From Anaerolineales bacterium (GTDB taxonomy: Bacteria > Chloroflexota > Anaerolineae > Anaerolineales > E44-bin32), in NCBI GenBank assembly GCA_034430425.1, contig DAOUEK010000032.1:11890-75889 (forward strand): a stretch of 64,000 bases of DNA, in the 5' to 3' direction. Shown here piece by piece: positions 41,190-54,231 of the stretch. Position 1 is the first letter of the stretch; each line of letters begins with the position of its first letter. The notes beneath the pieces were generated by a model. The model was not told the origin of the DNA and made no database searches. It saw only the letters and a list, made by a program, of their open reading frames with translations. The position numbers and the translations under genes are program-made.

Positions 41190-42794
41190 TTGAATCCCGT
41201 GGCGGAGACAGCGATGACAGAAAATCCCGAAGCATTCATCGCCGAGGTGACCGGGCGTGTGCGAACGCTTTACATACGCTATTCACGCGCCATGTGGCAA
41301 TCTGCCACGACAGGTTCAGAAGATGCTGCGCAGCACGAGAAAGAAACCAAGGCCGCTTTAATGCGATTCTGGGCGGATAAAAGCCTCTACGAGACCGCCA
41401 GAAAACTCAACGAAAGTGACGCCGCAGACGGCCCCATTCAACGCCGCACGATAAAACGGATTTATCTTTCCAGCGCAAAAGCCCAGCAAGACGATGCGAC
41501 CATCGAAGCCGTCACCCATCTCGAGACCCAGGCCCAACACAGCTTTTATAATTTTCGTGCACTCGTCGATGGAAAATCAATCAGCGATAATGAAGTGGAG
41601 AACATGCTGCGTACCAGCCGCGATCCTGCATTCGTGCGCCAGGTCTGGGAAGCGAGCAAGCGGATCGGCGAGCAAGTCGCCGATCACGTGCGTGAATTGG
41701 CCCGCCTTCGTAATCAAGCGGCCCAGGCACAGGGTTTTCGCGATCACTTCCAACGTTCATTGGTGCTGAATGAAATTGACGAAGCACAGTTGACCTCGCT
41801 TTTCATCGAGCTTGAAACAACGACACGGAACCCGTATTTGGAACTGAAGAAAACGATCGATCAGATTCGCTCGAAGCATTTCGGAATCGACGAGGCCGAT
41901 CTGCGGCCCTGGCACTACGGCGATCGCTTCTTCCAGCGCGCGCCGGAGATCACGAACGCCTCCATGGATCCTTATTTCGCAGATCGAGATCCCGTCGAGC
42001 TGGCGCTGAAAACCTACGACGGCGTGAAAATGGATGTGCGTGGCATCATCGAGCGATCCGATCTCTACCCCCGGGAAGGCAAAGATCAGCATGCTTTCTG
42101 CCTCGATATCGATCGTGAAGGCGATGTACGCACACTCAACAATCTGGAGTCTTCTCATCGCTGGACGGCAACCCTGCTCCACGAACTTGGTCATGCCGTT
42201 TACGATCAATACATCGACCATACACTCCCATGGGTTATTAGAACGCCACCGCATTCGCTCTCTACGGAAGCCATTGCGCTGCTGATGGAAGCCCTGACCT
42301 ACGATTCTGATTGGCTGAGGAGTGTCCTGGGTATTAAAGACAACGAAGCCAAACGCTTATCCATCGCTGCAGCCGAACAGGAACGTGCCCAACGCCTGAT
42401 TTTCACCCGCTGGGCGATGGTGATGACCGATTTCGAGCGTGCCCTCTACGCCGACCCGGAACGGGACCTCGATACCTTGTGGTGGGACCTGGTGGAGAAA
42501 TACCAAGCCGTACAACGACCGGAAAACCGTCGCGCGCCGGATTGGGCGGCGAAATACCACATTGCACTCGCACCCGTGTATTATCACAGCTACGAATTGG
42601 GGCACCTTGTGTCGTCTCAACTGCAAGCCTTCCTGCGCAAGAAATTCGGAGCGATCGTTGGACAGCCCAGGGTGGGTCGATGGCTGATCGATAATTATTT
42701 TAAACCCGGCGCAGAAGAGGATTGGGCCAGTCACGTCGAAATCGTAACCGGTGAGCCATTAAACCCCGGGTATTTCGTCGATACCATCCGATAG
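41190..42794 (+). CDS. Gluzincin metallopeptidase (M2/M3-like, HExxH...E)
   Basis: ORF track, 534 aa. Zinc motif LLHELGHAVYDQ with a glutamate 24 residues downstream (LSTEAIALL). No signal peptide was seen. The alternative start is ATG 41214. Confidence 0.6.
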   Translation: MNPVAETAMTENPEAFIAEVTGRVRTLYIRYSRAMWQSATTGSEDAAQHEKETKAALMRFWADKSLYETARKLNESDAADGPIQRRTIKRIYLSSAKAQQDDATIEAVTHLETQAQHSFYNFRALVDGKSISDNEVENMLRTSRDPAFVRQVWEASKRIGEQVADHVRELARLRNQAAQAQGFRDHFQRSLVLNEIDEAQLTSLFIELETTTRNPYLELKKTIDQIRSKHFGIDEADLRPWHYGDRFFQRAPEITNASMDPYFADRDPVELALKTYDGVKMDVRGIIERSDLYPREGKDQHAFCLDIDREGDVRTLNNLESSHRWTATLLHELGHAVYDQYIDHTLPWVIRTPPHSLSTEAIALLMEALTYDSDWLRSVLGIKDNEAKRLSIAAAEQERAQRLIFTRWAMVMTDFERALYADPERDLDTLWWDLVEKYQAVQRPENRRAPDWAAKYHIALAPVYYHSYELGHLVSSQLQAFLRKKFGAIVGQPRVGRWLIDNYFKPGAEEDWASHVEIVTGEPLNPGYFVDTIR

Positions 42795-42837
42795 ACCCTA
42801 AACAAGCGAGATCATCTACGCAGAGACTACCTCTACG

Positions 42838-43446
42838 GTGAAAACGATGAGTAACCCCAAGAATAATCCAAAGATACCGAACACTATTATCGTTGTATCT
42901 GGACTTCCCCGTTCCGGAACGTCCATGATGATGAATATGCTGGAAAGCGGTGGGCTCGAGCTTCTCACTGATGGTGTTCGAAAAGCGGACGATGATAATC
43001 CCCTCGGATATTATGAATATGAAGCGGTGAAACGTCTAAGGGAAGGCGACAATTCCTGGGTGAAGAATGCCCGAGGGAAAGTTGTCAAGATCATCTCCTA
43101 TTTGCTAACCAATCTTCCCGAAAAGAACCACTATCACGTGATTTTCATGCAGCGTGATCTTGATGAAGTGCTTGCTTCACAACGCAAGATGATTATCCGT
43201 CGCGGGGAAAACCCCGACAAAATCGATGACAAGAAGATGAAAACGATCCTCCAGAATCATTTAGACGAGATCGATGCGTGGATCAACCAGCAAGACAACA
43301 TTGCCCGGATCTATATGCCGTATAGAAAAATAATCAATGATCCACATCTCTACATTGAGAAACTCACGCAATTTCTTGGATTCCCCCTCGACACCGAGTC
43401 CATGATTCGCGTCGTCGATCCCGGCCTCTACCGGCAGCGCAGCTAA
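42838..43446 (+). CDS. Sulfotransferase family protein
   Basis: ORF track, 202 aa. It has a PAPS 5'-phosphosulfate-binding-loop-like motif, GLPRSGTSMMMNML, near the N-terminus. Size is typical of small cytosolic bacterial sulfotransferases. Confidence 0.6.
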   Translation: MKTMSNPKNNPKIPNTIIVVSGLPRSGTSMMMNMLESGGLELLTDGVRKADDDNPLGYYEYEAVKRLREGDNSWVKNARGKVVKIISYLLTNLPEKNHYHVIFMQRDLDEVLASQRKMIIRRGENPDKIDDKKMKTILQNHLDEIDAWINQQDNIARIYMPYRKIINDPHLYIEKLTQFLGFPLDTESMIRVVDPGLYRQRS

Positions 43447-43516
43447 TTCCTGGTATATAAAGCAGTCATCAGTACGATTGTACTGATCGTCGATGGACGA
43501 TCTGGCTGTAAACAAC

Positions 43517-43542
43517 CTCCGACATCGTTTATAATGTCGGAG
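43517..43542 (+). promoter_or_regulatory. Perfect 9-bp inverted repeat overlapping a TATAAT box (candidate operator/promoter of the downstream array)
   Basis: CTCCGACAT (43517-43525) pairs with ATGTCGGAG (43534-43542), with an 8-nt spacer. TATAAT lies at 43530-43535, straddling the spacer and right arm. It sits about 120 nt upstream of ATG 43662. Confidence 0.35.
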
Positions 43543-43661
43543 ATCGTAAAACAGCAGCGTCTCACAAGGACATTCGCTATTGCGATATGGATGTGCTTCA
43601 TCGTTATATTGTCCTCGATCGCAGAACGTATTTACATCAAGAAGATCACCGAGGTGTAATC

Positions 43662-43862
43662 ATGTACATTGATCCAAACACTGGGGGCCAAATATTCCAG
43701 CTCTTAGCGGTCATATTTGCAGCACTCTCAGGGATTGTCTTGGTATTCTCAAGCAAGATCCGCATGTTTTGGTCAAGGCTAAAACGGCGATTTCGGGAAT
43801 CGGGCAGTGAAAACCTCACAGAAATCGAAAACGTTGATGCAAGCCAAAACCCGGATGATTGA
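43662..43862 (+). CDS. Small membrane protein (66 aa) with an MYIDPxTG N-terminus
   Basis: ORF track 43587..43862. The internal ATG 43662 has GAGGTG 5 nt upstream and gives MYIDPNTGGQIFQLLAVIFAALSGIVLVFSSKIRMFWSRLKRRF..., with one TM helix and a basic/acidic tail. Confidence 0.45.
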   Translation: MYIDPNTGGQIFQLLAVIFAALSGIVLVFSSKIRMFWSRLKRRFRESGSENLTEIENVDASQNPDD

Positions 43863-43887
43863 AACCGTGGATTACTGCGATATTTAG

Positions 43888-45732
43888 ATGAAGACCATTA
43901 TTATCGGATTCGATGCATTCGATCCTGCATTTTTCGAACGTTTACACGATCAAGGGAAACTGCCGCATCTTGACAAGTACGTCGCCAACAAGGGATACGT
44001 CCATTTGGCAGTTGCCAATCCCGCACAAAGCGAAGTGTCCTGGACCAGTATTGCCACAGGCAAGAATCCCGGCGAGCATGGACTATTCGATTTTGTACAT
44101 CGAAATCCATCCAATTACGCGCTGCACGTTTCCTTGTTGCCGACAAAAAAATCAACCTTCGGCGTACAATTTGTTCCACCGTATAACACCCCCACCGTCT
44201 TTGATCACGCTGTAGAGATGGGGTATCCTGCTACAACACTCTGGTGGCCGGCGACATTTCCTGCCCGCAGGCAATCGCCTGTACGCACAATCCCTGGGTT
44301 GGGTACACCCGACATCCTGGGCCGCCTGGGCGTAGGAACCTACTTCAAACTCGATCCGAATCCCGCGGATAAGACGTATAAAACCAATCTTGAAAATCTT
44401 TCGGCATATGGAACACAAAAAGCGCGAGGTATCCTAAAGGGACCGCTGCTGAAATCGAAGAATGCAGAGGATAAGCAAGCAGCGCTCGCCTTTGAGATCG
44501 AATGGATTGACGCCAATACAGCCAACATGCGTATCAATAACAAAACTATTCCGCTTGAGAAGGGTCGCTGGAGTTCTTTTATCGAGCTCAATTTCAAACT
44601 CCGGCTCGGCGTATCCATTCGCGCCACCACCCAAGCCCTGCTGACAGAAAATTCCCACGGGCCGGGAGTGTATTTCCTCCCGCTGCAGATTCATCCGCTA
44701 AAGGCCTTATGGCCTTACGCCAATCCGGGCAGTTATGCCAAGGGATTATGGAAAAACATCGGTCCATACCACACACTTGGATGGCCGCAGGACACGACCG
44801 CACTGGATGAAGGATTCATCCAGGACGATCATTTCCTACGTTTATGTGAGGCGATCCTCGAGACGCGCGAAAAAGTTCTGATGAAAGAAATTCAGGCCCT
44901 CAAGGAAGGCATTCTCGCCATTGTATTCGACTCTCTCGATCGGATTCAGCACATGTTCTGGCGAGATCGAGAGGATATTATCGAATCCTGGTACCTGAAA
45001 TTGGATGCCTTGCTTGGCCGCATCGAAACTCAAATCAAAACCTGCAGCCATCAAGATGCAAGGATATTGGTGCTCTCCGATCATGGTTTCAGCGATTTCA
45101 ATACCAAAGTCCACTTGAATCGCTGGTTAATCGAGCATGACTACCTGCTTTCTGCAAACGAACAAGAACGAGGCGGACTGCAGGATGTCGTCTGGCAGAA
45201 GACGCGCGCCTATACTGTAGGGTTATCGAGCATCTATCTCAATCGATCCGGACGGGAAAGGGACGGCATTGTCATGGATAACGAATATGATTCGTTATCC
45301 ACCGAGATCAAAGAAGCGTTGCTTTCCTGGGAAGGTCCGGACAAGCGTAAGATTGTGCGATCGGTTTGGACGGGCGAAGAAGCCTTCCCCGGCCCACTCA
45401 CTCCCTATGCCCCCGATCTAGTCATCGGTTTCAATGCGGGTTATCGTGCTTCGGGCCAGACAGGCCTTGGAAACTGGGAACCTCATGCACTCGAAAAGAA
45501 CCTCGATCATTGGGGCGCGGATCACTGCATCGACCCCGGCCTCGTTCCGGGCGTGCTCTTTGCGAATACGAACCTGGAGCATCTTTCCTCCCCTTCGTAT
45601 GCCGACATTCCGGATCTGGTCATCGGCGGAAAATTCAAGCCCCGCAAATCCGCGGCATCACGTCCACCAGTTACGAGCGACGAGGATCGCGAGACGCTGG
45701 AAGAGAGGCTCAAGGACCTTGGCTATCTTTAA
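43888..45732 (+). CDS. Alkaline-phosphatase-superfamily phosphohydrolase/phosphomutase (type I phosphodiesterase/NPP-like, COG3379-like), cytosolic
   Basis: ORF track, 614 aa. Metal-ligand and nucleophile-region motifs are IIIGFDAFDP, QSEVSWTSIATGKNPGEHG and ILVLSDHGF. No signal peptide was seen. Confidence 0.7.
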   Translation: MKTIIIGFDAFDPAFFERLHDQGKLPHLDKYVANKGYVHLAVANPAQSEVSWTSIATGKNPGEHGLFDFVHRNPSNYALHVSLLPTKKSTFGVQFVPPYNTPTVFDHAVEMGYPATTLWWPATFPARRQSPVRTIPGLGTPDILGRLGVGTYFKLDPNPADKTYKTNLENLSAYGTQKARGILKGPLLKSKNAEDKQAALAFEIEWIDANTANMRINNKTIPLEKGRWSSFIELNFKLRLGVSIRATTQALLTENSHGPGVYFLPLQIHPLKALWPYANPGSYAKGLWKNIGPYHTLGWPQDTTALDEGFIQDDHFLRLCEAILETREKVLMKEIQALKEGILAIVFDSLDRIQHMFWRDREDIIESWYLKLDALLGRIETQIKTCSHQDARILVLSDHGFSDFNTKVHLNRWLIEHDYLLSANEQERGGLQDVVWQKTRAYTVGLSSIYLNRSGRERDGIVMDNEYDSLSTEIKEALLSWEGPDKRKIVRSVWTGEEAFPGPLTPYAPDLVIGFNAGYRASGQTGLGNWEPHALEKNLDHWGADHCIDPGLVPGVLFANTNLEHLSSPSYADIPDLVIGGKFKPRKSAASRPPVTSDEDRETLEERLKDLGYL

Positions 45733-46237
45733 GGATCGGTTTACATCAAACGATCTGGTTCACATTTTTGTATTTTGCGCCCTGCCGATCCACCTGTGGT
45801 CCATCATTATCATGTTCAGACTTGTTCCCTCCTGGTTGTTATACCTCAGCCAGTCTGACATCATCGGCAGTACGGCTTACCATCTGATGTTTACTATCTT
45901 CGAGACGGTGCTCGTCTTTATCATCCTGCTTGCAGTTGGGCGCTTGATACCGAAGAAATGGACCCCGGAGCCGTTTCTAACGCTGTGTTCCGTATTGCTC
46001 ATCGAACTAGCCATTATGGCGATCGTCTTTCAGCATCTTGTCCAACAGTATTCCTCATTACGTTGGATGTTCGTGAGCTGTGCGATCATTCTGGCTCTTT
46101 CTATTGTTGTCGTACCGAAAATCTCCAAGCTGCAAGCACTGAATCGCAGCCTGGCGGAACGTCTTACCGTTTTGACTTTTATATACGTGATGATTGACGT
46201 CATTGGCGTCATAGTTGTCATCGTTCGCAATCTGTGA
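45719..46237 (+). CDS. About 5-TM membrane protein, partner of sulfatase-fold enzyme 1 (module copy 1)
   Basis: The ORF track gives 45434..46237, but the first 95 codons overlap the AlkP gene. TTG 45719 gives (M)AIFKDRFTSNDLVHIFVFCALPIHLWSIIIMFRLVP..., 172 aa. This is collinear with copies 2 and 3 (172 and 173 aa); copy 2 also starts TTG-GCx-ATx-TTx. Confidence 0.6.
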   Translation: MAIFKDRFTSNDLVHIFVFCALPIHLWSIIIMFRLVPSWLLYLSQSDIIGSTAYHLMFTIFETVLVFIILLAVGRLIPKKWTPEPFLTLCSVLLIELAIMAIVFQHLVQQYSSLRWMFVSCAIILALSIVVVPKISKLQALNRSLAERLTVLTFIYVMIDVIGVIVVIVRNL

Positions 46238-46243
46238 GTAATT

Positions 46244-47788
46244 ATGAGACCAAAGATTAATCGACGCGGTTTTCTAAAAATGGCATCGCTCTTCTCACTT
46301 GCCACTCCCTGGATTGCGAGTTCAAATCCCTCCTTGGGCCAAAGAAAAACCGATGCGAATACGCCCAACATTCTGATCCTGGTCTTCGACACCCTCACAG
46401 CGCATGATGTGTCGCTATATGGATATCACCGAGAGACAACGCCCAACTTGAAACGGTTCGCGGAAAAAGCAACCGTCTACCACAACCATTACGCCGGCGG
46501 CAATTTCACCACCCCCGGTACTTCTTCGATTCTCACTGGAACGCTCCCCTGGACACATCGGGCATTCAGCCACCACGCAACACCGCTTGACACCTTCATT
46601 TCCAGGAATGTCTTCAGCGAATTCAACGATGATCAATACACCCGCATCGGGTTTTCGCACAATCTATTGGTAAATATTATCTTGTACCAGCTCCAGCAAA
46701 ATCTTGATCTTTTCACATTACCCAATCAAGTCGCAATGGTGGACTTTAATGTTACCGATAACCTTTTCAAAAGAGACTTTGGTATTGCCGCCCAAAGCGA
46801 ACGCAGTCATTACAAGCAACCGGGAGAATCGTCCGGTTCGCTGTTCTTGTACCCGCTATTTTGGTCGATAAAGGATTTCGTTTACCAATCCTTAAATAAA
46901 CGCTTACAGCGGAGATTCCCCCGCGGCATCCCTGGATACCACGACATGCTCTACCCACTCGAAGACACGATCGATTGGATTCGGGATCAATTAATCGAGT
47001 GGCATCAACCTTTCGTCAGCTACCTCCACATGATGCCGCCACACGATCCTTACTGTCCGCGCGAGGAATTCGTAAATATTTTCTGGGATGGTTGGGTGCC
47101 AGAATCGAAACCCGACCATTTCTTTGCCAACTTCGCAGATCGCCAGAACGTTCTGAACGAGAAACATGTTTTCTACGACGAATACATCGCATACGTCGAT
47201 GCGGAATTTGGGCGATTGGACAATTATCTGGAAAGCAATGGTTTTTATGACAACACAATTGTCGTTTTAACCTCCGATCATGGCGAGATGTTCGAACGAA
47301 AGATTTGGAAACATACTACCCCGACACTCTTCCAACCAATCATTCATGTTCCATTGCTAATCTCCGTTCCTGGACAGACAGCACGTCAGGATGTGCATGC
47401 TTCAACGAGTTGCGTCGACCTGCTGCCAACCCTGCTTCAACTTACCGGTCGTTCCATCCCTTCATGGTGTGAGGGCGTGGTGCTGCCCCCGTATGCCGAC
47501 CAAGAACTCTCCGACGATCGAAGCATTTTTATTGTCGAAGCAAAAAGCAACCCCAAAATCGCTCCTCTGCGAAAAGCGACGGTGGCGATGATCAAGGGTG
47601 ACTATAAATTGATCCACTATCGAGGCTACGAAAGCTACGATGGTTTGTATGAACTTTTTAACTTGCGCGAGGACCCCGAAGAATTAGATAATCTTTATTC
47701 AACGCATCCAGCAATCGCATCTGAACTGCGGCAAGAATTACTTATTAAGATCGAGGAAATGGATGCGCCGTTCACACCATCCAAGTAG
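46244..47788 (+). CDS. Sulfatase-fold (PF00884-like) enzyme with a Tat signal and Thr at the nucleophile position, copy 1
   Basis: ORF track, 514 aa. Twin-arginine signal INRRGFLKMASLFSLATPWIASS. Metal ligands ILVFDTLTAHD and LTSDHGEMFE. GNFTTPGTSSILTG occupies the place where sulfatases have C/S-x-P-x-R. It starts 6 nt after the membrane partner. Confidence 0.8.
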   Translation: MRPKINRRGFLKMASLFSLATPWIASSNPSLGQRKTDANTPNILILVFDTLTAHDVSLYGYHRETTPNLKRFAEKATVYHNHYAGGNFTTPGTSSILTGTLPWTHRAFSHHATPLDTFISRNVFSEFNDDQYTRIGFSHNLLVNIILYQLQQNLDLFTLPNQVAMVDFNVTDNLFKRDFGIAAQSERSHYKQPGESSGSLFLYPLFWSIKDFVYQSLNKRLQRRFPRGIPGYHDMLYPLEDTIDWIRDQLIEWHQPFVSYLHMMPPHDPYCPREEFVNIFWDGWVPESKPDHFFANFADRQNVLNEKHVFYDEYIAYVDAEFGRLDNYLESNGFYDNTIVVLTSDHGEMFERKIWKHTTPTLFQPIIHVPLLISVPGQTARQDVHASTSCVDLLPTLLQLTGRSIPSWCEGVVLPPYADQELSDDRSIFIVEAKSNPKIAPLRKATVAMIKGDYKLIHYRGYESYDGLYELFNLREDPEELDNLYSTHPAIASELRQELLIKIEEMDAPFTPSK

Positions 47789-47862
47789 AAAAGCCTTGCA
47801 CACGGGGATGCTATAACTGGTGGAAAATCTCAAAGCAATTCGATCATTTCCGGATTAATCAC

Positions 47863-48381
47863 TTGGCAATTTTCCATAAATACTATTCCTCACGAGATCT
47901 GATGCAATTAACAGTATTTGTTGCGTTCCCCATCCATGTATGGAGCATTGTTAATATGTTGCGTGCTGTTCCTTCGTTGATCCTTTCCATGTCTGCCTCC
48001 GAAATCATAGGCAGTTGGTCTTACAATATGACTTTCACCCTGCTCGAGACTATCATCATTCTCCTGTTCGTTCTCACAATTGGAATTGCATTGTCGATCC
48101 GCTTGACCATGACCACGTACGTTACGCTCAGTTCATTCTTTCTTACTGAGATTGCTCTCATGAGATTTCTCTTTGAAGCTCTCACCAATGTCTTTGCGCC
48201 TATGGGTCTTCTCATTGCAGCTTGCTTTGTCGTTCTCATTCTGACCTTGTTGCTCGTACCTAAAAATCCAAAATGGAAGGACATCACTCATGAGGTTGCG
48301 ACTCGTCTTGCAGTGTTGACTTACATCTATATTTTCATTGACATTGTCGGTGTGATCATTGTCATTGTAAGATTGGTATGA
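47863..48381 (+). CDS. About 5-TM membrane protein, module copy 2
   Basis: ORF track, 172 aa, TTG start. MAIFHKYYSSRDLMQLTVFVAFPIHVWSIVNMLRAVP...IDIVGVIIVIVRLV is collinear with copies 1 and 3. Confidence 0.6.
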   Translation: MAIFHKYYSSRDLMQLTVFVAFPIHVWSIVNMLRAVPSLILSMSASEIIGSWSYNMTFTLLETIIILLFVLTIGIALSIRLTMTTYVTLSSFFLTEIALMRFLFEALTNVFAPMGLLIAACFVVLILTLLLVPKNPKWKDITHEVATRLAVLTYIYIFIDIVGVIIVIVRLV

Positions 48382-48388
48382 GTGTGAG

Positions 48389-49939
48389 ATGTCATTAAAA
48401 ATCAACCGCCGGGATTTTCTTAAGCTGAGTTCGCTGATTTCATTGGCCACGCCCTGGATCAGCGCGTCGAATCCGAAGGTAGAATCTCACAAGACTCCTC
48501 CAGAAACGCCGAATATTCTCATCATCATCTTTGATGCCCTCTCTGCGCTCGATGTCTCGCTCTACGGTTATCACCGAGCGACAATGCCCAACTTGGCTCG
48601 CTTCGCCGAGAGGGCAACCGTTTACCACAACCATTATTCCGCTGGCAATTTCACCACTTCTGGCACAGCTTCGATCCTCACCGGAACCTACCCATGGACC
48701 CATCGCGCTATTCATCTCTACGGAACCGTCTTGGATTCTATTGAATCTCACAATGCCTATGCCGAATTCGGCCGATACGATTACACACGTGTTGGTTTCT
48801 CCCACAATCTGCTGGTGAATGTGTTGTTTCACCAGTTCATAGATCATATCGATGTATACACGCCTCCGCACGATGTGGCTTTGGTGGATTTCGATATCTC
48901 CGACGATCTCTTCGATTCGGATTTCAGAATTGCGTATCTGAGTGAAAACCGATACTTTATGAACCCAAATCCGCCGTCTAATTCTCTCTATCTTCATCGA
49001 ATCCATTCAGCCTTACGAGCGTTGATCGGAAGGATCTTGAGCAATCGTCTTAAGCAATCATTTCCCCGCGGAATTCCGGGAAATCAAGACATGCTCACCC
49101 CCCTCGAAGATACGGTTGATTGGATTATGAAACAACTCTTGCAGTGGCCACAGCCATTCTTCAGTTATTTACACTTGATGCCGCCTCATGATCCATATTG
49201 CCCCCGTGCAGAATTTGTTGATATTTTCTGGGACGATTGGAAACCCATCGAGAAACCCGATCATTTCTTCTCAGCCCATGGTGAAGACCCACACTCGATA
49301 TACCAACGACGAGTAATATACGATGAATACATCGCTTACGTCGATGCAGAATTCGGAAGACTTCACGACTTCATGGAAGAGAATGGCTTTGACGAGAACA
49401 CGATTGTTATCTTCAGCTCCGACCACGGGGAGATGTTCGAACGCAAGATTTGGGGGCATGGCGGTCCCACACTTTATGAACCAGTTATCCGTATACCCCT
49501 GCTCATATCACTGCCCCATCAAACATCTCGCTACGATGTGTACACGCCTACCAGCAATGTCGATATCCTGCCAACTCTCTTTCACCTCACAAAACACCCC
49601 ATCCCGGACTGGACTGAAGGCTTGATATTACCTCCCTTCACAAATGAGCCTCATTCTTCCGAGCGCAGCCTATTTGCTATCGAGGCAAAAAGTAATCCAA
49701 AAACAGGTCCGCTTAGAAAGGCCACGGTAGCCATGATCAAGGGAAAATATAAGTTGATCCACTACCGTGGATATAAAGGCTTCGATAACGAATACGAACT
49801 CTATGACCTCGACGAAGATCCAGAGGAATTGCAGAACTTATATCCCATTCGTGTAGAAATCGCTGCGGCAATGAGGCAGGAGTTACTCGCTACAATTGAG
49901 GAGAAAGACCATCCCTTCTCCATATTGGAACAGGATTAG
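48389..49939 (+). CDS. Sulfatase-fold enzyme with a Tat signal and Thr at the nucleophile position, copy 2
   Basis: ORF track, 516 aa. Motifs INRRDFLKLSSLISLATPWISAS, IIIFDALSALD, GNFTTSGTASILTG and FSSDHGEMFE. It starts 7 nt after the partner. Confidence 0.8.
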   Translation: MSLKINRRDFLKLSSLISLATPWISASNPKVESHKTPPETPNILIIIFDALSALDVSLYGYHRATMPNLARFAERATVYHNHYSAGNFTTSGTASILTGTYPWTHRAIHLYGTVLDSIESHNAYAEFGRYDYTRVGFSHNLLVNVLFHQFIDHIDVYTPPHDVALVDFDISDDLFDSDFRIAYLSENRYFMNPNPPSNSLYLHRIHSALRALIGRILSNRLKQSFPRGIPGNQDMLTPLEDTVDWIMKQLLQWPQPFFSYLHLMPPHDPYCPRAEFVDIFWDDWKPIEKPDHFFSAHGEDPHSIYQRRVIYDEYIAYVDAEFGRLHDFMEENGFDENTIVIFSSDHGEMFERKIWGHGGPTLYEPVIRIPLLISLPHQTSRYDVYTPTSNVDILPTLFHLTKHPIPDWTEGLILPPFTNEPHSSERSLFAIEAKSNPKTGPLRKATVAMIKGKYKLIHYRGYKGFDNEYELYDLDEDPEELQNLYPIRVEIAAAMRQELLATIEEKDHPFSILEQD

Positions 49940-50012
49940 TGCCATCACAGGGATTGCATTCCTGCCTGCAAACAAAATAGCGAAAGGGATTATTGACAAA
50001 GAGTAACTATCA

Positions 50013-50534
50013 ATGTTGGGTACCTTCCGCAAACACTTCGCGAAACAGGATCTGATCCAATTGGGTGTGGTTTGTGCCTTCCTGATTCACATCTGGGCCA
50101 TTATCAACATGTTTCATGATATCCCTGCCATGCTGCTGTATATGACCAGAAACGAGATCATCGGCAGTCTGGCCTACAATATGCTTTTCGCCCTCTTCGA
50201 AACCATAATTGTTTTTCTCATCATGGTCGCATTGGGATTGATCCTGCCAAGCCATTGGACACGATCCAACTTCTTCCCGGTCAGTTGCTTTCTGCTTATT
50301 GAACTAACAATCATGATCACCCTCTTCAAAATACTTGGATTCAGACCTTATTCCAGGGTACTGCTTGGTGGCGTTTGTATCGTAGTCCTGTTTCTGACAG
50401 CCCTGGTCGTTCCTAAGTTTTCAAAAATGAGCGAGATCGCCCGTTCTATCTCGACGCGCCTGACGCTGTTGACCGCCGTTTATATCCTGATCGATTTGGT
50501 CGGGGTAATCATCGTTATCGCCAGAAACGTGTGA
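50013..50534 (+). CDS. About 5-TM membrane protein, module copy 3
   Basis: ORF track, 173 aa. MLGTFRKHFAKQDLIQLGVVCAFLIHIWAIINMFHDIP...IDLVGVIIVIARNV. Confidence 0.6.
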   Translation: MLGTFRKHFAKQDLIQLGVVCAFLIHIWAIINMFHDIPAMLLYMTRNEIIGSLAYNMLFALFETIIVFLIMVALGLILPSHWTRSNFFPVSCFLLIELTIMITLFKILGFRPYSRVLLGGVCIVVLFLTALVVPKFSKMSEIARSISTRLTLLTAVYILIDLVGVIIVIARNV

Positions 50535-50541
50535 GCATGGC

Positions 50542-52071
50542 ATGCCACTGAATATCAGCCGTCGTGATTTTCTCAAGTTGGCTTCACTGCTTCCCCTGGC
50601 CACACCATGGGTAAGCGCTTCAAACCCGACTCCGCGAAATCGTCGGATAAACGACCGCGCTCCAAATGTGCTCATAGTGGTCTTCGATACACTCTCCGCC
50701 CTCGATCTCTCACTCTACGGATTCCACCGACAGACGACGCCCCATCTGGCCCGTTTCGCCCAAAACGCCACGGTTTACCACGCGCATTATTCCAGTGGCA
50801 ATTTCACTTCTCCGGGTACGGGATCGATTCTGACCGGTACTGCCCCCTTTACCCATCGTGCCATTAACATGCTTGGGTCAGTCGAGGAATCCTTCACGTC
50901 AAGGAATATTTTCAGCACATTTGATGATTACACACGAATTGGCTTCTCTCACAATCATCTCGCCAACCTCCTGTTGTACCAATTTCAAGCCCACCTTGAC
51001 GAATTTATACTTCCGGATGAAGTCGCCATCGTGGATTTTAACTTCGCAGATGACTTATTTCCGAATGACTACAGCATTGCTTCCCAGAGTGAACGCCGCT
51101 ACCTGAAAAAACCAGGGGAAACCTCCAACTCTCTTTTCCTGCATTCACTCCTAATGTTATTGAAGGACATCGTGGATCGTTATACGTTGAAACAATTAAA
51201 GGAATCTTTTCCTCGCGGAATACCCGGTTTTCACGATATGGTCTATCCCCTCGAAGACACTATTACCTGGATCAGAGAACAACTGGTGAAGTGGCCACAA
51301 CCCTTCATGGCATATTTACACATGATGCCCCCGCATGACCCCTATTGCCCGCGTAAGGAGTTTGTGGACATTTTCCAGGACGGTTGGGAACCGATCCACA
51401 AGCCCAAGCACATGCTCTCGAACTCGATTTTTCCACCGGACGTACTCAATGTGCAGCACCAGTACTACAACGAATATATCGCCTACGTGGATTCCGAATT
51501 CGGCCGACTGCATAACTTTATGCAGGAACATAATTATTACGAAAACACCATCGTGGTCTTTACCTCGGATCACGGGGAGATGTTCGAACGGCAGATCTTC
51601 AGACACGTCACACCCACACTCTATCAGCCAATCATTCGTGTGCCGCTGTTGATTTCAGTGCCCCAGCAGACATCTCGCCAGGACGTCTACACTCCGACGA
51701 GCTGCATCGACCTGCTGCCCACACTGCTTCATCTGACCGGACATCCGATCCCAACATGGTGTGAGGGACTGGTGCTGCCCCCGTACACAACAGAAGATAT
51801 CCCCAGCGAGCGGAGTATTTTCGCCCTCGAAGCGAAAGAGAATCCAAAAATGGCGCCTCTTAACAAAGCGACCGTAGCGATGATCAAGAATCCATTCAAA
51901 ATGATTTATTATCGTGGATATGAAACATACGACGGTGTTTTTGAATTATACAACCTGTACGATGATCCAGAAGAATTGGATAATCTCTACACAACACATC
52001 CGGAGATCGCTTCCGAACTGGAGCGTGAATTACTTGCCAAGATCGAGGAAAAGGACGCTCGCTATCGATAG
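50542..52071 (+). CDS. Sulfatase-fold enzyme with a Tat signal and Thr at the nucleophile position, copy 3
   Basis: ORF track, 509 aa. Motifs ISRRDFLKLASLLPLATPWVSAS, IVVFDTLSALD, GNFTSPGTGSILTG and FTSDHGEMFE. It starts 7 nt after the partner. Confidence 0.8.
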   Translation: MPLNISRRDFLKLASLLPLATPWVSASNPTPRNRRINDRAPNVLIVVFDTLSALDLSLYGFHRQTTPHLARFAQNATVYHAHYSSGNFTSPGTGSILTGTAPFTHRAINMLGSVEESFTSRNIFSTFDDYTRIGFSHNHLANLLLYQFQAHLDEFILPDEVAIVDFNFADDLFPNDYSIASQSERRYLKKPGETSNSLFLHSLLMLLKDIVDRYTLKQLKESFPRGIPGFHDMVYPLEDTITWIREQLVKWPQPFMAYLHMMPPHDPYCPRKEFVDIFQDGWEPIHKPKHMLSNSIFPPDVLNVQHQYYNEYIAYVDSEFGRLHNFMQEHNYYENTIVVFTSDHGEMFERQIFRHVTPTLYQPIIRVPLLISVPQQTSRQDVYTPTSCIDLLPTLLHLTGHPIPTWCEGLVLPPYTTEDIPSERSIFALEAKENPKMAPLNKATVAMIKNPFKMIYYRGYETYDGVFELYNLYDDPEELDNLYTTHPEIASELERELLAKIEEKDARYR

Positions 52072-52188: not shown

Positions 52189-54231
52189 ATGGCAACGTTA
52201 AACCCCGCTTTCAATGGCATCAGTGACCAGGAATACAAACGCCGTATCCGTGCCTGGACGCTGTACGACTGGGCAAATTCCGCCTTCGCCACGACGATCC
52301 TGGCTGCCGTGCTCCCGATTTATTACAGCCAGGTGGCCGGCGCAACTCTCCCCAGCCGGGCAGCCGCGACGGCACTTTGGAGCCTGGGTTTATCCATCTC
52401 GCTCTTCGTCATCGCTATTCTCTCGCCGATCCTCGGCACCATATCCGATATCAAGCGAGGCAAAAAGGGTTTCCTCACGGTTTTCGCGGGTATCGGCGTC
52501 GTAGCCACCGGATCGATGGTTTTGATTCAGACCGGCGATTGGGTGCTGGCGTCGATCTTGTTCGTGCTCGGCCGCCTGGGATTCACAGGCGCGAACGTCT
52601 TCTACGACGCGCTGCTTCCTCATGTGGCCAAAGAAGACGATCGCGATCGGGTATCGACGCGAGGTTACGCACTCGGATACCTTGGCGGAGGCATCCTCCT
52701 GGCGGTCAATGTGGCCATGATCCAAATGCTGCCCGGGACATTGGGCTCCCGCCTATCCTTCCTCAGCGTCGCCATTTGGTGGGCGGTGTTCACGATCCCC
52801 CTCCTGCGTACGATCCCCGAGCCGCCCGCTGCCACCGCCAAACTCGGATCTGGAGAAAATGTGATCTTGGAAAGTTTCAGCCGCCTACGCGAGACGTTCA
52901 AAGACATCCGCCAATATGGTCAACTTTTCAAATTTCTGCTCGCCTTCTTGATCTATAACGATGGCATTGGCACGATTATCGGAGTCGCTGCGATATACGG
53001 CGCCGAACTGGGTTTCGGAACGGTCGAGTTGATCCTCGCCCTGCTGCTTGTGCAGTTTGTCGGCATTCCCTTCAGCTTGATCTTCGGCCGCATCCCCAGC
53101 CCTCAAGAAAAACGCAGGGCCTTCTATCTGGCTTTCATCGTCTTCAACATGGTCATGCTTCCCCTCACCGGCACGCTTGGCCTTCAGCTTTTTCCCGCAG
53201 ATGTGACGGGAGCGAAACCTTCGGCTTTTGAATCCACTGCCTCGGCAGTAGGTGAAGGAATCCACGAGGTTGATGCACAGATCGTGTCCTTCACGGGCAC
53301 CTGGCTGGAAGAGGATGTCTCCGCCAGTGAGATCAGCGGCGGCGGTTTCTTCGAGTTTATCAACCGCTTGTTCGGCGAGAGTGTCGCAGATGTCACCTAT
53401 CGACAATCCGCCGATCCAGGCGGCCGCCTCGATTTCACTTTCAACGGGCAGAATGTCCAATTCACATACAGCGAAGGACCGGACCGCGGCATTTGGGCCA
53501 TCGAAGTGGATGGGGAAGTCTATCTGGACGCCGAGAATAAACCCGTCCTTCTCGATGCGTATGCCGCCACCGCACGTTACGGAGCCATCTCCGAGATCAT
53601 CGAGGTCGAAGAAGCCGGAATCCATACCCTTTCCCTTGTAAACACACTGGATCGCAATCCGGACAGCGCTGGAAATACAATCTCGATTGCCGCATTCGAA
53701 GTCTTGCCTGCCGCGCGCCAGCAAAACCTACTCATCATTCTCGGTCTGATCGTCGCATTACAGGTCGTAGGGTTGTTGTTTGCCTGGCTCCTCGGAGAGC
53801 GCTTGTTCTCCAAACTCGCCGAACGTTTGAACACCAAACGCAGCATCATTTTGGCGCTTCTGACCTACGCCATTATCGCCGTCTGGGGATATTTCCTCAA
53901 CTCGACGATCGAATTCTGGTTCCTGGCCTGGATGGTGGCTACTGTTCAGGGCGGCAGTCAAGGCTTAAGCCGCAGTCTATATGCCGTTATGTCTCCAGCC
54001 GTGAAAAGTGGTGAATTCTTCGGCCTGTTCGGCGTGATGGAGAAATTCTCCGCCGTCCTGGGCCCGATCTTGTTCGCCGCAGCCGGAGCCGCCTTTGCCA
54101 GCAGCCGGCCTGCCATCCTGAGTCTGATTGCCTTCTTCATCATTGGTGGTTGGCTGCTAGCCAAGGTGGACGTGGAGGAAGGACGCAAAGTGGCCCGGGC
54201 GGAAGATGCGGAATTTCTAACTGCATCGTAA
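52189..54231 (+). CDS. MFS transporter of the UMF1/Atg22-like type, with a roughly 175-aa soluble domain inserted in the C-terminal half
   Basis: ORF track, 680 aa. AAGGAGG lies upstream. The N-terminus YKRRIRAWTLYDWANSAFATTILAAVLPIYY is typical of the UMF1 family. Residues about 337-512 lack hydrophobic helices and look beta-rich (VSFTGTW...LDFTFNGQNVQFTYSEGPDRGIWAIEVDGEVY...). Confidence 0.75.
   Translation: MATLNPAFNGISDQEYKRRIRAWTLYDWANSAFATTILAAVLPIYYSQVAGATLPSRAAATALWSLGLSISLFVIAILSPILGTISDIKRGKKGFLTVFAGIGVVATGSMVLIQTGDWVLASILFVLGRLGFTGANVFYDALLPHVAKEDDRDRVSTRGYALGYLGGGILLAVNVAMIQMLPGTLGSRLSFLSVAIWWAVFTIPLLRTIPEPPAATAKLGSGENVILESFSRLRETFKDIRQYGQLFKFLLAFLIYNDGIGTIIGVAAIYGAELGFGTVELILALLLVQFVGIPFSLIFGRIPSPQEKRRAFYLAFIVFNMVMLPLTGTLGLQLFPADVTGAKPSAFESTASAVGEGIHEVDAQIVSFTGTWLEEDVSASEISGGGFFEFINRLFGESVADVTYRQSADPGGRLDFTFNGQNVQFTYSEGPDRGIWAIEVDGEVYLDAENKPVLLDAYAATARYGAISEIIEVEEAGIHTLSLVNTLDRNPDSAGNTISIAAFEVLPAARQQNLLIILGLIVALQVVGLLFAWLLGERLFSKLAERLNTKRSIILALLTYAIIAVWGYFLNSTIEFWFLAWMVATVQGGSQGLSRSLYAVMSPAVKSGEFFGLFGVMEKFSAVLGPILFAAAGAAFASSRPAILSLIAFFIIGGWLLAKVDVEEGRKVARAEDAEFLTAS

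Follow-up and report, generated by a model that had tools for sequence, protein, structure and literature searches.

The window analysed here is a stretch of 64,000 nt from an Anaerolineales bacterium (contig DAOUEK010000032.1, positions 11,890-75,889). It carries three tandem copies of a two-gene module, in which a gene for a small membrane protein with five predicted transmembrane (TM) helices, called the 5-TM partner below, is followed by a gene for a sulfatase-fold enzyme. The enzyme has threonine at the position of the nucleophile and a predicted signal for export by the twin-arginine translocation (Tat) pathway. The six genes are listed with their positions in the window; the helices of the first partner refer to its AlphaFold2 (AF2) model.

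45719-46237, forward strand: 5-TM partner copy 1, 172 aa, TTG start; five AF2 helices, predicted N-in/C-out
46244-47788, forward strand: Thr-type sulfatase-fold enzyme copy 1, 514 aa, PF00884 and SGSH_C; predicted Tat signal with RRGFLK; key residues D49, T89, D345-H346 and H357
47863-48381, forward strand: 5-TM partner copy 2, 172 aa, TTG start
48389-49939, forward strand: Thr-type sulfatase-fold enzyme copy 2, 516 aa, PF00884 and SGSH_C
50013-50534, forward strand: 5-TM partner copy 3, 173 aa
50542-52071, forward strand: Thr-type sulfatase-fold enzyme copy 3, 509 aa, PF00884 and SGSH_C

The genes of pairs 1, 2 and 3 are separated by 6, 7 and 7 nt, respectively, and the modules by 74 and 73 nt. 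In pair 1, both genes share the same reading frame, and the TTG start of the partner at 45719 overlaps the end of the upstream PF01663 gene (stop at 45732) by 14 nt. The original prediction, which was made from the letters of this DNA, had described three consecutive same-strand pairs, each with a protein of 172-173 aa and about five TM helices followed 6-7 nt later by a sulfatase-fold protein of 509-516 aa, and had considered the copies to be the intact products of an old duplication. The positions of the open reading frames (ORFs) agree with this layout, and the divergence of the copies, described below, agrees with the proposed age.

Public gene calls on the same DNA match all six ORFs except partner copy 2, which is only 141 aa long there; partner copy 1 is identical to the public protein P0001. 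For partner copy 2, the TTG at 47863 appears to be the better start, because the region with the family-conserved residues F22 and W27 lies upstream of the short public start. The shortened public call is the one at locus L089 (3038-3463). For partner copy 1, an ORF of 267 aa with an ATG start (45434) was considered and rejected, since it runs into the PF01663 gene and exceeds the 170-195 aa of the family. A scan for promoters and terminators between 41.0 and 54.6 kb gave counts at chance level, and no terminator was found between the modules, which is uninformative as such but compatible with a single operon.

The three partners are collinear over their full length without internal gaps and show 40-42% pairwise identity, while the three enzymes, also collinear over their full length, show 59-63%. 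Among the copies, the fraction of differing synonymous sites is 0.70-0.81 and thus saturated, and that of non-synonymous sites is 0.22-0.39. Saturation at synonymous sites together with the low non-synonymous fraction shows that the duplication of the module is ancient and that every copy is kept by purifying selection. Further, the identity matrices of partners and enzymes are correlated (r = 0.80) and the nearest neighbours of the paralogues are congruent. The modules were thus duplicated as whole units and earlier than the divergence of the species.

The association of the two genes is not limited to this locus. An enzyme-seeded scan with one genome per species yielded 79 loci, nearly all of them in metagenome-assembled genomes of Chloroflexota/Anaerolineae. 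A match to the hidden Markov model of the partner lies immediately upstream on the same strand in about 72 of the 79; the exceptions are three loci at contig ends, one with another pair nearby, and three that truly have no partner. The opposite direction was addressed with six partner-seeded contexts, for which distant partners (23-29% identity) served as seeds, and in all six a Sulfatase/SGSH_C gene is located directly downstream. The gap between partner and enzyme has a median of about 6-7 nt and clusters at 0-15 nt, with many overlaps of 1-4 nt. The pairing of partner and enzyme is thus real in both directions.

In all three enzymes the PF00884 Sulfatase domain (E about 1e-38) is joined by SGSH_C, the C-terminal subdomain of sulfatases (E 1e-11 to 1e-14). 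With NCBIfam models they reach 112-132 bits for choline-sulfatase, 106-111 bits for arylsulfatase and 76-92 bits for PehA, in comparison to 30-40 bits for YejM, 26-32 bits for LtaS and 21-31 bits for EptA, each of these scores being below the cut-off of the respective family. The best 60 of 84 relatives among the PDB sequences are all phosphonate monoester hydrolases (PMH), choline sulfatases or carbohydrate sulfatases, and S1 sulfatases, PMH and choline sulfatases make up the whole Foldseek top 50 of the enzyme model (E 1e-19 to 1e-16; probability 1.00 for many S1 sulfatases). LtaS, EptA and YejM were found neither in these best 60 sequence matches nor in the Foldseek top 50.

The active site differs from that of the closest relatives. 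In the alignment to the PMH structure 4upk, 'CgPsR' corresponds to 'TtPgT' of the enzyme, which places T89 at the position of the Cys. The sulfatase CxPxR signature, (C/S)xPxR, is absent from the family and is replaced by TxPGT in all members. Threonine is not convertible to formylglycine (PMC5066984). Residues R7, R8, K12, D49, T89, H262, H267, D345, H346 and H357 are invariant in 27 diverse relatives, and in the enzymes of the 80-odd loci the Thr nucleophile was present in 95 of 95, DHG in 90 of 90 and a His at position +11 from H346 also in 90 of 90. This His (H357) is aligned with the catalytic/sulfate-binding Lys of PMH and sulfatases. An hhalign comparison with EptA reached an overall probability of 53% over 98 columns; it sets 'SDHGEMF-ERGIWKH' of the enzyme on the EptA motif 'SDHGESLGENGIYLH', which brings H357 onto the His of 'GIYLH' in E. 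coli EptA. The same constellation of Thr and His is used by enzymes of the alkaline phosphatase superfamily that transfer phosphoryl groups, among them EptA/MCR-1, LtaS and NPP (nucleotide pyrophosphatase/phosphodiesterase). By its predicted fold, the enzyme belongs to the lineage of S1 sulfatases, PMH and choline sulfatases, while its predicted catalytic constellation is of the phosphoryl-transfer type.

The three enzymes of the window begin with a twin-arginine motif similar to RRxFLK, which is present in 104 of 106 enzymes. This agrees with the Tat pattern of S/T-R-R-x-F-L-K and a moderately hydrophobic stretch behind it, and the enzymes are predicted Tat substrates. Anchoring of the enzymes as lipoproteins was also considered; it was ruled out, since no Cys was seen in the signal regions.

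The 5-TM partner could not be assigned to a described family. No family model of Pfam or NCBIfam matched it, and no match was found among the PDB sequences at E <= 10. When members of the family were compared with Pfam at E <= 10, scattered noise was obtained (PalH in 6 of 60, DUF6057 in 4 of 60) and no TM-domain family. A word-indexed search retrieved 77 members, and an exhaustive profile search 1,340 clusters at 50% identity, 1,107 of them with E <= 1e-10. The AF2 model, based on a 46-sequence alignment, consists of five long helices (predicted local distance difference test score, pLDDT, 87; predicted template modelling score, pTM, 0.79). The count of Lys and Arg residues is 3.9 at the N-terminus, 2.5 in loop 2 and 2.9 in loop 4, as compared to 0.9 in loop 1 and 1.5 in loop 3; according to the positive-inside rule, this bias indicates N-in/C-out topology. 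W27, Y54, E62 and R170 are invariant in the family, followed in conservation by F22, P78, R148, Y156 and G163. The apparent location of W27, Y54, E62, Y156, G163 and R170 in the mid-to-outer half of the membrane suggests an outward-facing functional site. In a Foldseek search with the partner model, the best E value was 0.9; no match reached significance, nor did any transporter fold.

When partner 1 and enzyme 1 were concatenated and modelled by AF2 with an unpaired alignment, the 686 residues reached a pLDDT of 88.3 and a pTM of 0.88, and low confidence was limited to residues 175-201, which form the signal peptide linker. If the two domains were placed freely, the pTM should not exceed approximately 0.70-0.75, because the larger domain comprises 514 of 686 residues (0.75). 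The modelled pTM is above this ceiling of arbitrary placement, which implies a defined packing of the partner on the enzyme. Based on this model, we infer a physical complex of the two proteins.

This architecture is reminiscent of LtaS, EptA/MCR-1, OpgB, CptA and YejM (PbgA, LapC), in which a 5-TM part and an extracytoplasmic PF00884 domain form a single polypeptide. As in these proteins, a five-helix part predicted to be N-in/C-out comes first and a predicted extracytoplasmic sulfatase-fold domain second. Like the LtaS/EptA group, the module has the Thr nucleophile, the Asp/His metal ligands (DHG) and an envelope-related role suggested by its context, and the His at 11-12 residues past DHG corresponds to that of EptA (H478 in MCR-1). 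However, the module consists of two polypeptides instead of one, its catalytic part is predicted to be exported by Tat rather than by Sec, its first metal ligand is Asp and not Glu, and the enzyme keeps SGSH_C and belongs to the S1 sulfatase/PMH branch. Moreover, its membrane part has no detectable homology to the TM domain of the group: hhalign gave a probability of 0.1% for the TM domain of E. coli EptA and 0.3% for that of LapC/YejM, and the Foldseek matches of the partner to YejM/PbgA chains (E about 5, TM-score 0.30-0.35) are within chance for helical bundles. Among the proteins listed, about 350 partners and about 225 enzymes, none was a fusion of partner and sulfatase. The listed partners are all stand-alone proteins of 130-241 aa, and the listed enzymes (n=120) are 469-521 aa long, too short for an added membrane domain. 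Since the enzyme groups with sulfatases and PMH, the partner lacks homology to the known TM domains and fusions were not found, the architecture is probably analogous to that of LtaS/EptA and convergent, rather than a product of gene fission.

Closest to the enzyme among solved structures, in sequence as well as in predicted fold, are PMH and choline-O-sulfatase (4upk, 2vqr, 6g5z), with E values of about 1e-23 to 1e-19 in the sequence comparison and of about 1e-18 (TMt 0.6-0.69) with Foldseek. PHxPY, DHGE and the C-terminal subdomain are common to all of them. PMH and choline-O-sulfatase have formylglycine (CxPxR) and Lys, whereas the module enzyme has Thr, another Thr in place of the Arg, and His. 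Further, they are soluble homo-oligomers, whereas the module enzyme is equipped with a Tat signal and with a membrane partner of its own. With respect to the latter, DmsAB-DmsC and FdnGH-FdnI offer a parallel, by analogy alone: in these systems a folded, cofactor-loaded Tat subunit is held by a polytopic membrane subunit that is encoded alongside, and in the module, too, a Tat-exported catalytic subunit is accompanied by a membrane subunit from the adjacent gene. However, those are redox enzymes with quinol-binding anchors, while the module enzyme has a hydrolase/transferase fold and no redox cofactor motifs. PhoD and PhoX are Tat-exported metallo-phosphoesterases, but their fold is unrelated and they lack a dedicated polytopic partner. 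Our literature search found no description of the module.

Taken together, the building blocks named in the original prediction held up, namely a sulfatase-fold enzyme with a Thr nucleophile and its own twin-arginine signal, a partner with about five hydrophobic helices from no known family, and a pairing that is conserved across genomes. Its proposal of a two-part enzyme is supported by the conserved pairing and the confident AF2 packing, but not in respect of homology to LtaS/EptA. The claim of a split LtaS/EptA-type gene did not survive: the enzymes score far higher on sulfatase models and cluster with soluble sulfatases, and the partner shows no significant similarity to the TM domains of EptA or YejM. 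These correspond to two of the refuting results that the original prediction had set out.

The three modules are embedded in a larger cassette, the other members of which are the following.

42838-43446, forward strand: sulfotransferase of the type using 3'-phosphoadenosine-5'-phosphosulfate (PAPS), 202 aa, PF13469 and PF00685; head of the cassette
43662-43862, forward strand: single-pass mini-protein, 66 aa; M-YIDPNTGG, TM helix and basic tail; no Pfam or NCBIfam match
43888-45732, forward strand: PF01663 (NPP-type) enzyme of the alkaline phosphatase superfamily, 614 aa, without signal peptide; E 4e-30
52189-54231, forward strand: Atg22-like transporter of the major facilitator superfamily (MFS), 680 aa, PF11700 and PF07690; 3' of the third module

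The order is thus sulfotransferase, mini-protein, PF01663 enzyme, three modules and MFS transporter. The cassette probably combines a predicted cytoplasmic (PF01663) and exported enzymes of the alkaline phosphatase superfamily, with a small membrane protein before each. Its G+C content is 46-51% (42001-52000), and 46-48% over the three modules, while the flanks have 54-57%; this could reflect foreign origin or a distinct codon usage. The PF01663 enzyme, for which no match among the PDB sequences was found, lies next to the module on its upstream side in 37 of the 55 loci with room for it and is located elsewhere in the locus in four more. Homologues of the mini-protein were found in about 40 loci. 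The mini-protein is always encoded just upstream of the 614-aa PF01663 enzyme, and further examples are present at L018 (5898-6176) and L023 (5003-5329). Some homologues have a signal peptide and an AxA site ahead of YIDPNTGG. With its Arg/Lys-rich tail, the mini-protein is laid out much like a C-terminal sorting signal (GlyGly-CTERM or LPXTG type) that is encoded on its own.

The sulfotransferase adjoins the cassette, upstream or downstream, in 13 loci, and the MFS transporter is conserved in close relatives alone (L006, L008, L010). The transporter contains an insert of ~180 aa between its two halves, apparently soluble (residues about 340-520), and in L006 it is followed by an FGE-sulfatase/BNR gene (FGE, formylglycine-generating enzyme). 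Wzm/Wzt-type ATP-binding cassette (ABC) exporters, family 4 glycosyltransferases (GT4), PMT_2, AlgX-like and BNR proteins are encoded in about 12-16 loci. A bifunctional ATP-sulfurylase/adenosine-5'-phosphosulfate (APS) kinase, which is a PAPS synthase, as well as NeuB, CMP-sugar synthetase and KpsS/C-like proteins were found in 4-6 loci. For example, in L026 (9867-16944; also in L035, L036 and L046), genes for ATP-sulfurylase/APS kinase, a short-chain dehydrogenase/reductase (SDR), CMP-sugar synthetase, NeuB and a KpsS/C-like protein are located directly downstream of the module. A PAP2 lipid phosphatase is present in one partner-seeded context. The context as a whole speaks of surface glycoconjugates, their biosynthesis, export and sulfation, and not of nutrient scavenging.

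Based on these observations, we propose that the module is a two-subunit, Tat-assembled enzyme of the membrane surface which acts on an envelope substrate, either lipid-linked or membrane-proximal, by way of a Thr-phospho intermediate, a proposal to which we give an even chance of being correct. The catalytic subunit would be a metal-dependent enzyme of the alkaline phosphatase superfamily, descended from the branch of S1 sulfatases, PMH and choline sulfatases, in which the formylglycine machinery (CxPxR and Lys) was exchanged for a Thr nucleophile and His. It would fold in the cytoplasm, be exported by Tat, and dock outside on its dedicated 5-TM subunit, which would keep it at the membrane. 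The polar residues of the 5-TM subunit (W27, Y54, E62, Y156 and R170) probably present the lipid-linked or membrane-proximal substrate. A covalent Thr-phospho (less likely Thr-sulfo) intermediate would then be formed, and the group passed on to water or to a surface-glycoconjugate acceptor. The existence of two separate genes could be explained by the Tat export of a pre-folded domain, which would be hard to combine with a Sec-inserted polytopic domain in one polypeptide. The logic would be the same as in LtaS/EptA/OpgB, but independently reached, and the three diverged paralogous modules may stand for three substrate or acceptor specificities. Three parts of the proposal are ones that we infer: a lipid-linked substrate, a transfer reaction in place of hydrolysis, and the chemistry itself.

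Several observations weigh against this proposal. Of 106 enzymes, 23 have no partner directly upstream, most of them being extra copies in arrays, and the partner is wholly absent in three loci (L051, L078, L084). In several loci, among them L001, L042 and L048, a single partner precedes an array of two to six enzymes, six being reached in L042. Partner-less enzymes and arrays mean that a 1:1 complex of partner and enzyme is not obligatory and that the stoichiometry is not fixed; in the arrays, one partner may serve several enzymes, or the extra enzymes may act freely. In addition, the AF2 packing rests on an artificial fusion of one cognate pair, and the nearest characterised relatives of the enzyme are soluble hydrolases. 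The context genes vary by clade, and each theme may represent few independent lineages. Finally, since PAPS synthase or sulfotransferase genes accompany the module in about 19 of 79 loci, the chemistry could be that of sulfate rather than of phosphate.

The arrays with a single 5-TM gene and three to six enzyme paralogues extend over 7436-17963 in L042 and 560-5923 in L048. Upstream of the partner-less enzymes in L078 and L084 we noticed a gene of 150 aa as a candidate for a substitute partner, but its product has no hydrophobic stretches, looks GNAT-acetyltransferase-like by eye, and was rejected.

Alternatively, the enzyme could be a secreted soluble hydrolase, a phosphodiesterase or phosphatase for substrate processing or scavenging, and the 5-TM protein a passive anchor which retains it at the surface of a monoderm cell. 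The fold and sequence class of the enzyme, the extra enzyme copies without partner in the arrays, and the precedent of the Tat-exported phosphatases PhoD and PhoX are in line with this explanation, and the AF2 packing would fit an anchor equally well. However, a passive anchor needs neither five helices nor a near-invariant intramembrane Glu and Tyr/Trp that are kept in more than 1,100 clusters (50% identity), and the neighbouring genes belong to glycan biosynthesis and export, not to phosphate uptake or catabolism. We regard a passive anchor as unlikely, but as an explanation to be taken seriously.

It is also conceivable that the 5-TM protein moves the substrate or product of the enzyme across the membrane, as a small transporter or channel with a membrane Glu like that in proteins of the small multidrug resistance (SMR) type, and that the two proteins are coupled by the operon without forming a stable complex. 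E62 is indeed located mid-membrane, and tight adjacency of the genes would also be expected from metabolic coupling. On the other hand, the pTM of 0.88 of the concatenated pair implies a defined interface, a length of 172 aa with an odd number of helices is atypical among known carriers, Foldseek revealed no significant transporter fold, and in L042 up to six enzymes would share one transporter. A role in transport is therefore doubtful.

Genuine sulfatases, or sulfate editors, with a mechanism independent of formylglycine, which would act on surface glycans sulfated by the products of the neighbouring sulfotransferase and PAPS-synthase genes, appear very improbable. The S1 fold class with the retained SGSH_C, the sulfotransferase adjacent in 13 loci, the PAPS synthase in six, and the FGE-domain gene nearby in L006 would fit such enzymes. 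However, every member has TxPGT in place of CxPxR, and the Thr cannot become formylglycine (PMC5066984). Besides, His is found instead of the sulfate-binding Lys, and no maturase gene was found in the window. The Thr-type enzymes of the superfamily are phosphoryl-transfer enzymes.

Although gene order equals domain order, the five N-in/C-out helices, the Thr nucleophile and the His aligned to that of EptA are shared, and YejM TM chains give the top, albeit non-significant, Foldseek TM-scores of the partner, true fission of an LtaS/EptA-type gene is hardly credible in view of a catalytic domain that fits the sulfatase models far better than those of YejM, EptA and LtaS and has S1 sulfatases, PMH or choline sulfatases as its entire Foldseek top 50, of hhalign probabilities below 1% for the partner against the EptA and YejM TM domains, and of the lack of fused relatives among the partners and enzymes listed.

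If the proposed two-subunit enzyme is extended to the family as a whole, it is tempting to speculate that the modules represent an unrecognised class of Tat-assembled transferases, nearly restricted to Chloroflexota and convergently derived from soluble hydrolases, which transfer a phosphate-linked group (or perhaps, in view of the recurrent sulfotransferase and PAPS-synthase neighbours, a sulfate-linked one) from a membrane lipid bound by the 5-TM subunit to exported surface glycans, each of the three paralogous modules adding a different decoration. This extension is tentative, and we would not count it as the probable outcome.

The findings matter for several reasons. Many proteins annotated as "arylsulfatase A-like" in Chloroflexota are Thr-type family members for which a sulfatase identity is very unlikely, while such annotations serve to infer the degradation of sulfated polysaccharides in metagenomes. 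The 5-TM partner is a sizeable family of at least 1,100 clusters at 50% identity without Pfam, NCBIfam or structural assignment. Further, the LtaS/EptA design lies behind both colistin resistance and the synthesis of lipoteichoic acid; should the complex prove real, the combination of a membrane module with a sulfatase-fold Thr enzyme would have been invented independently, by way of Tat export and docking instead of gene fusion. Last but not least, the module offers an entry point to the envelope and surface glycans of Anaerolineae cells, about which little is known.

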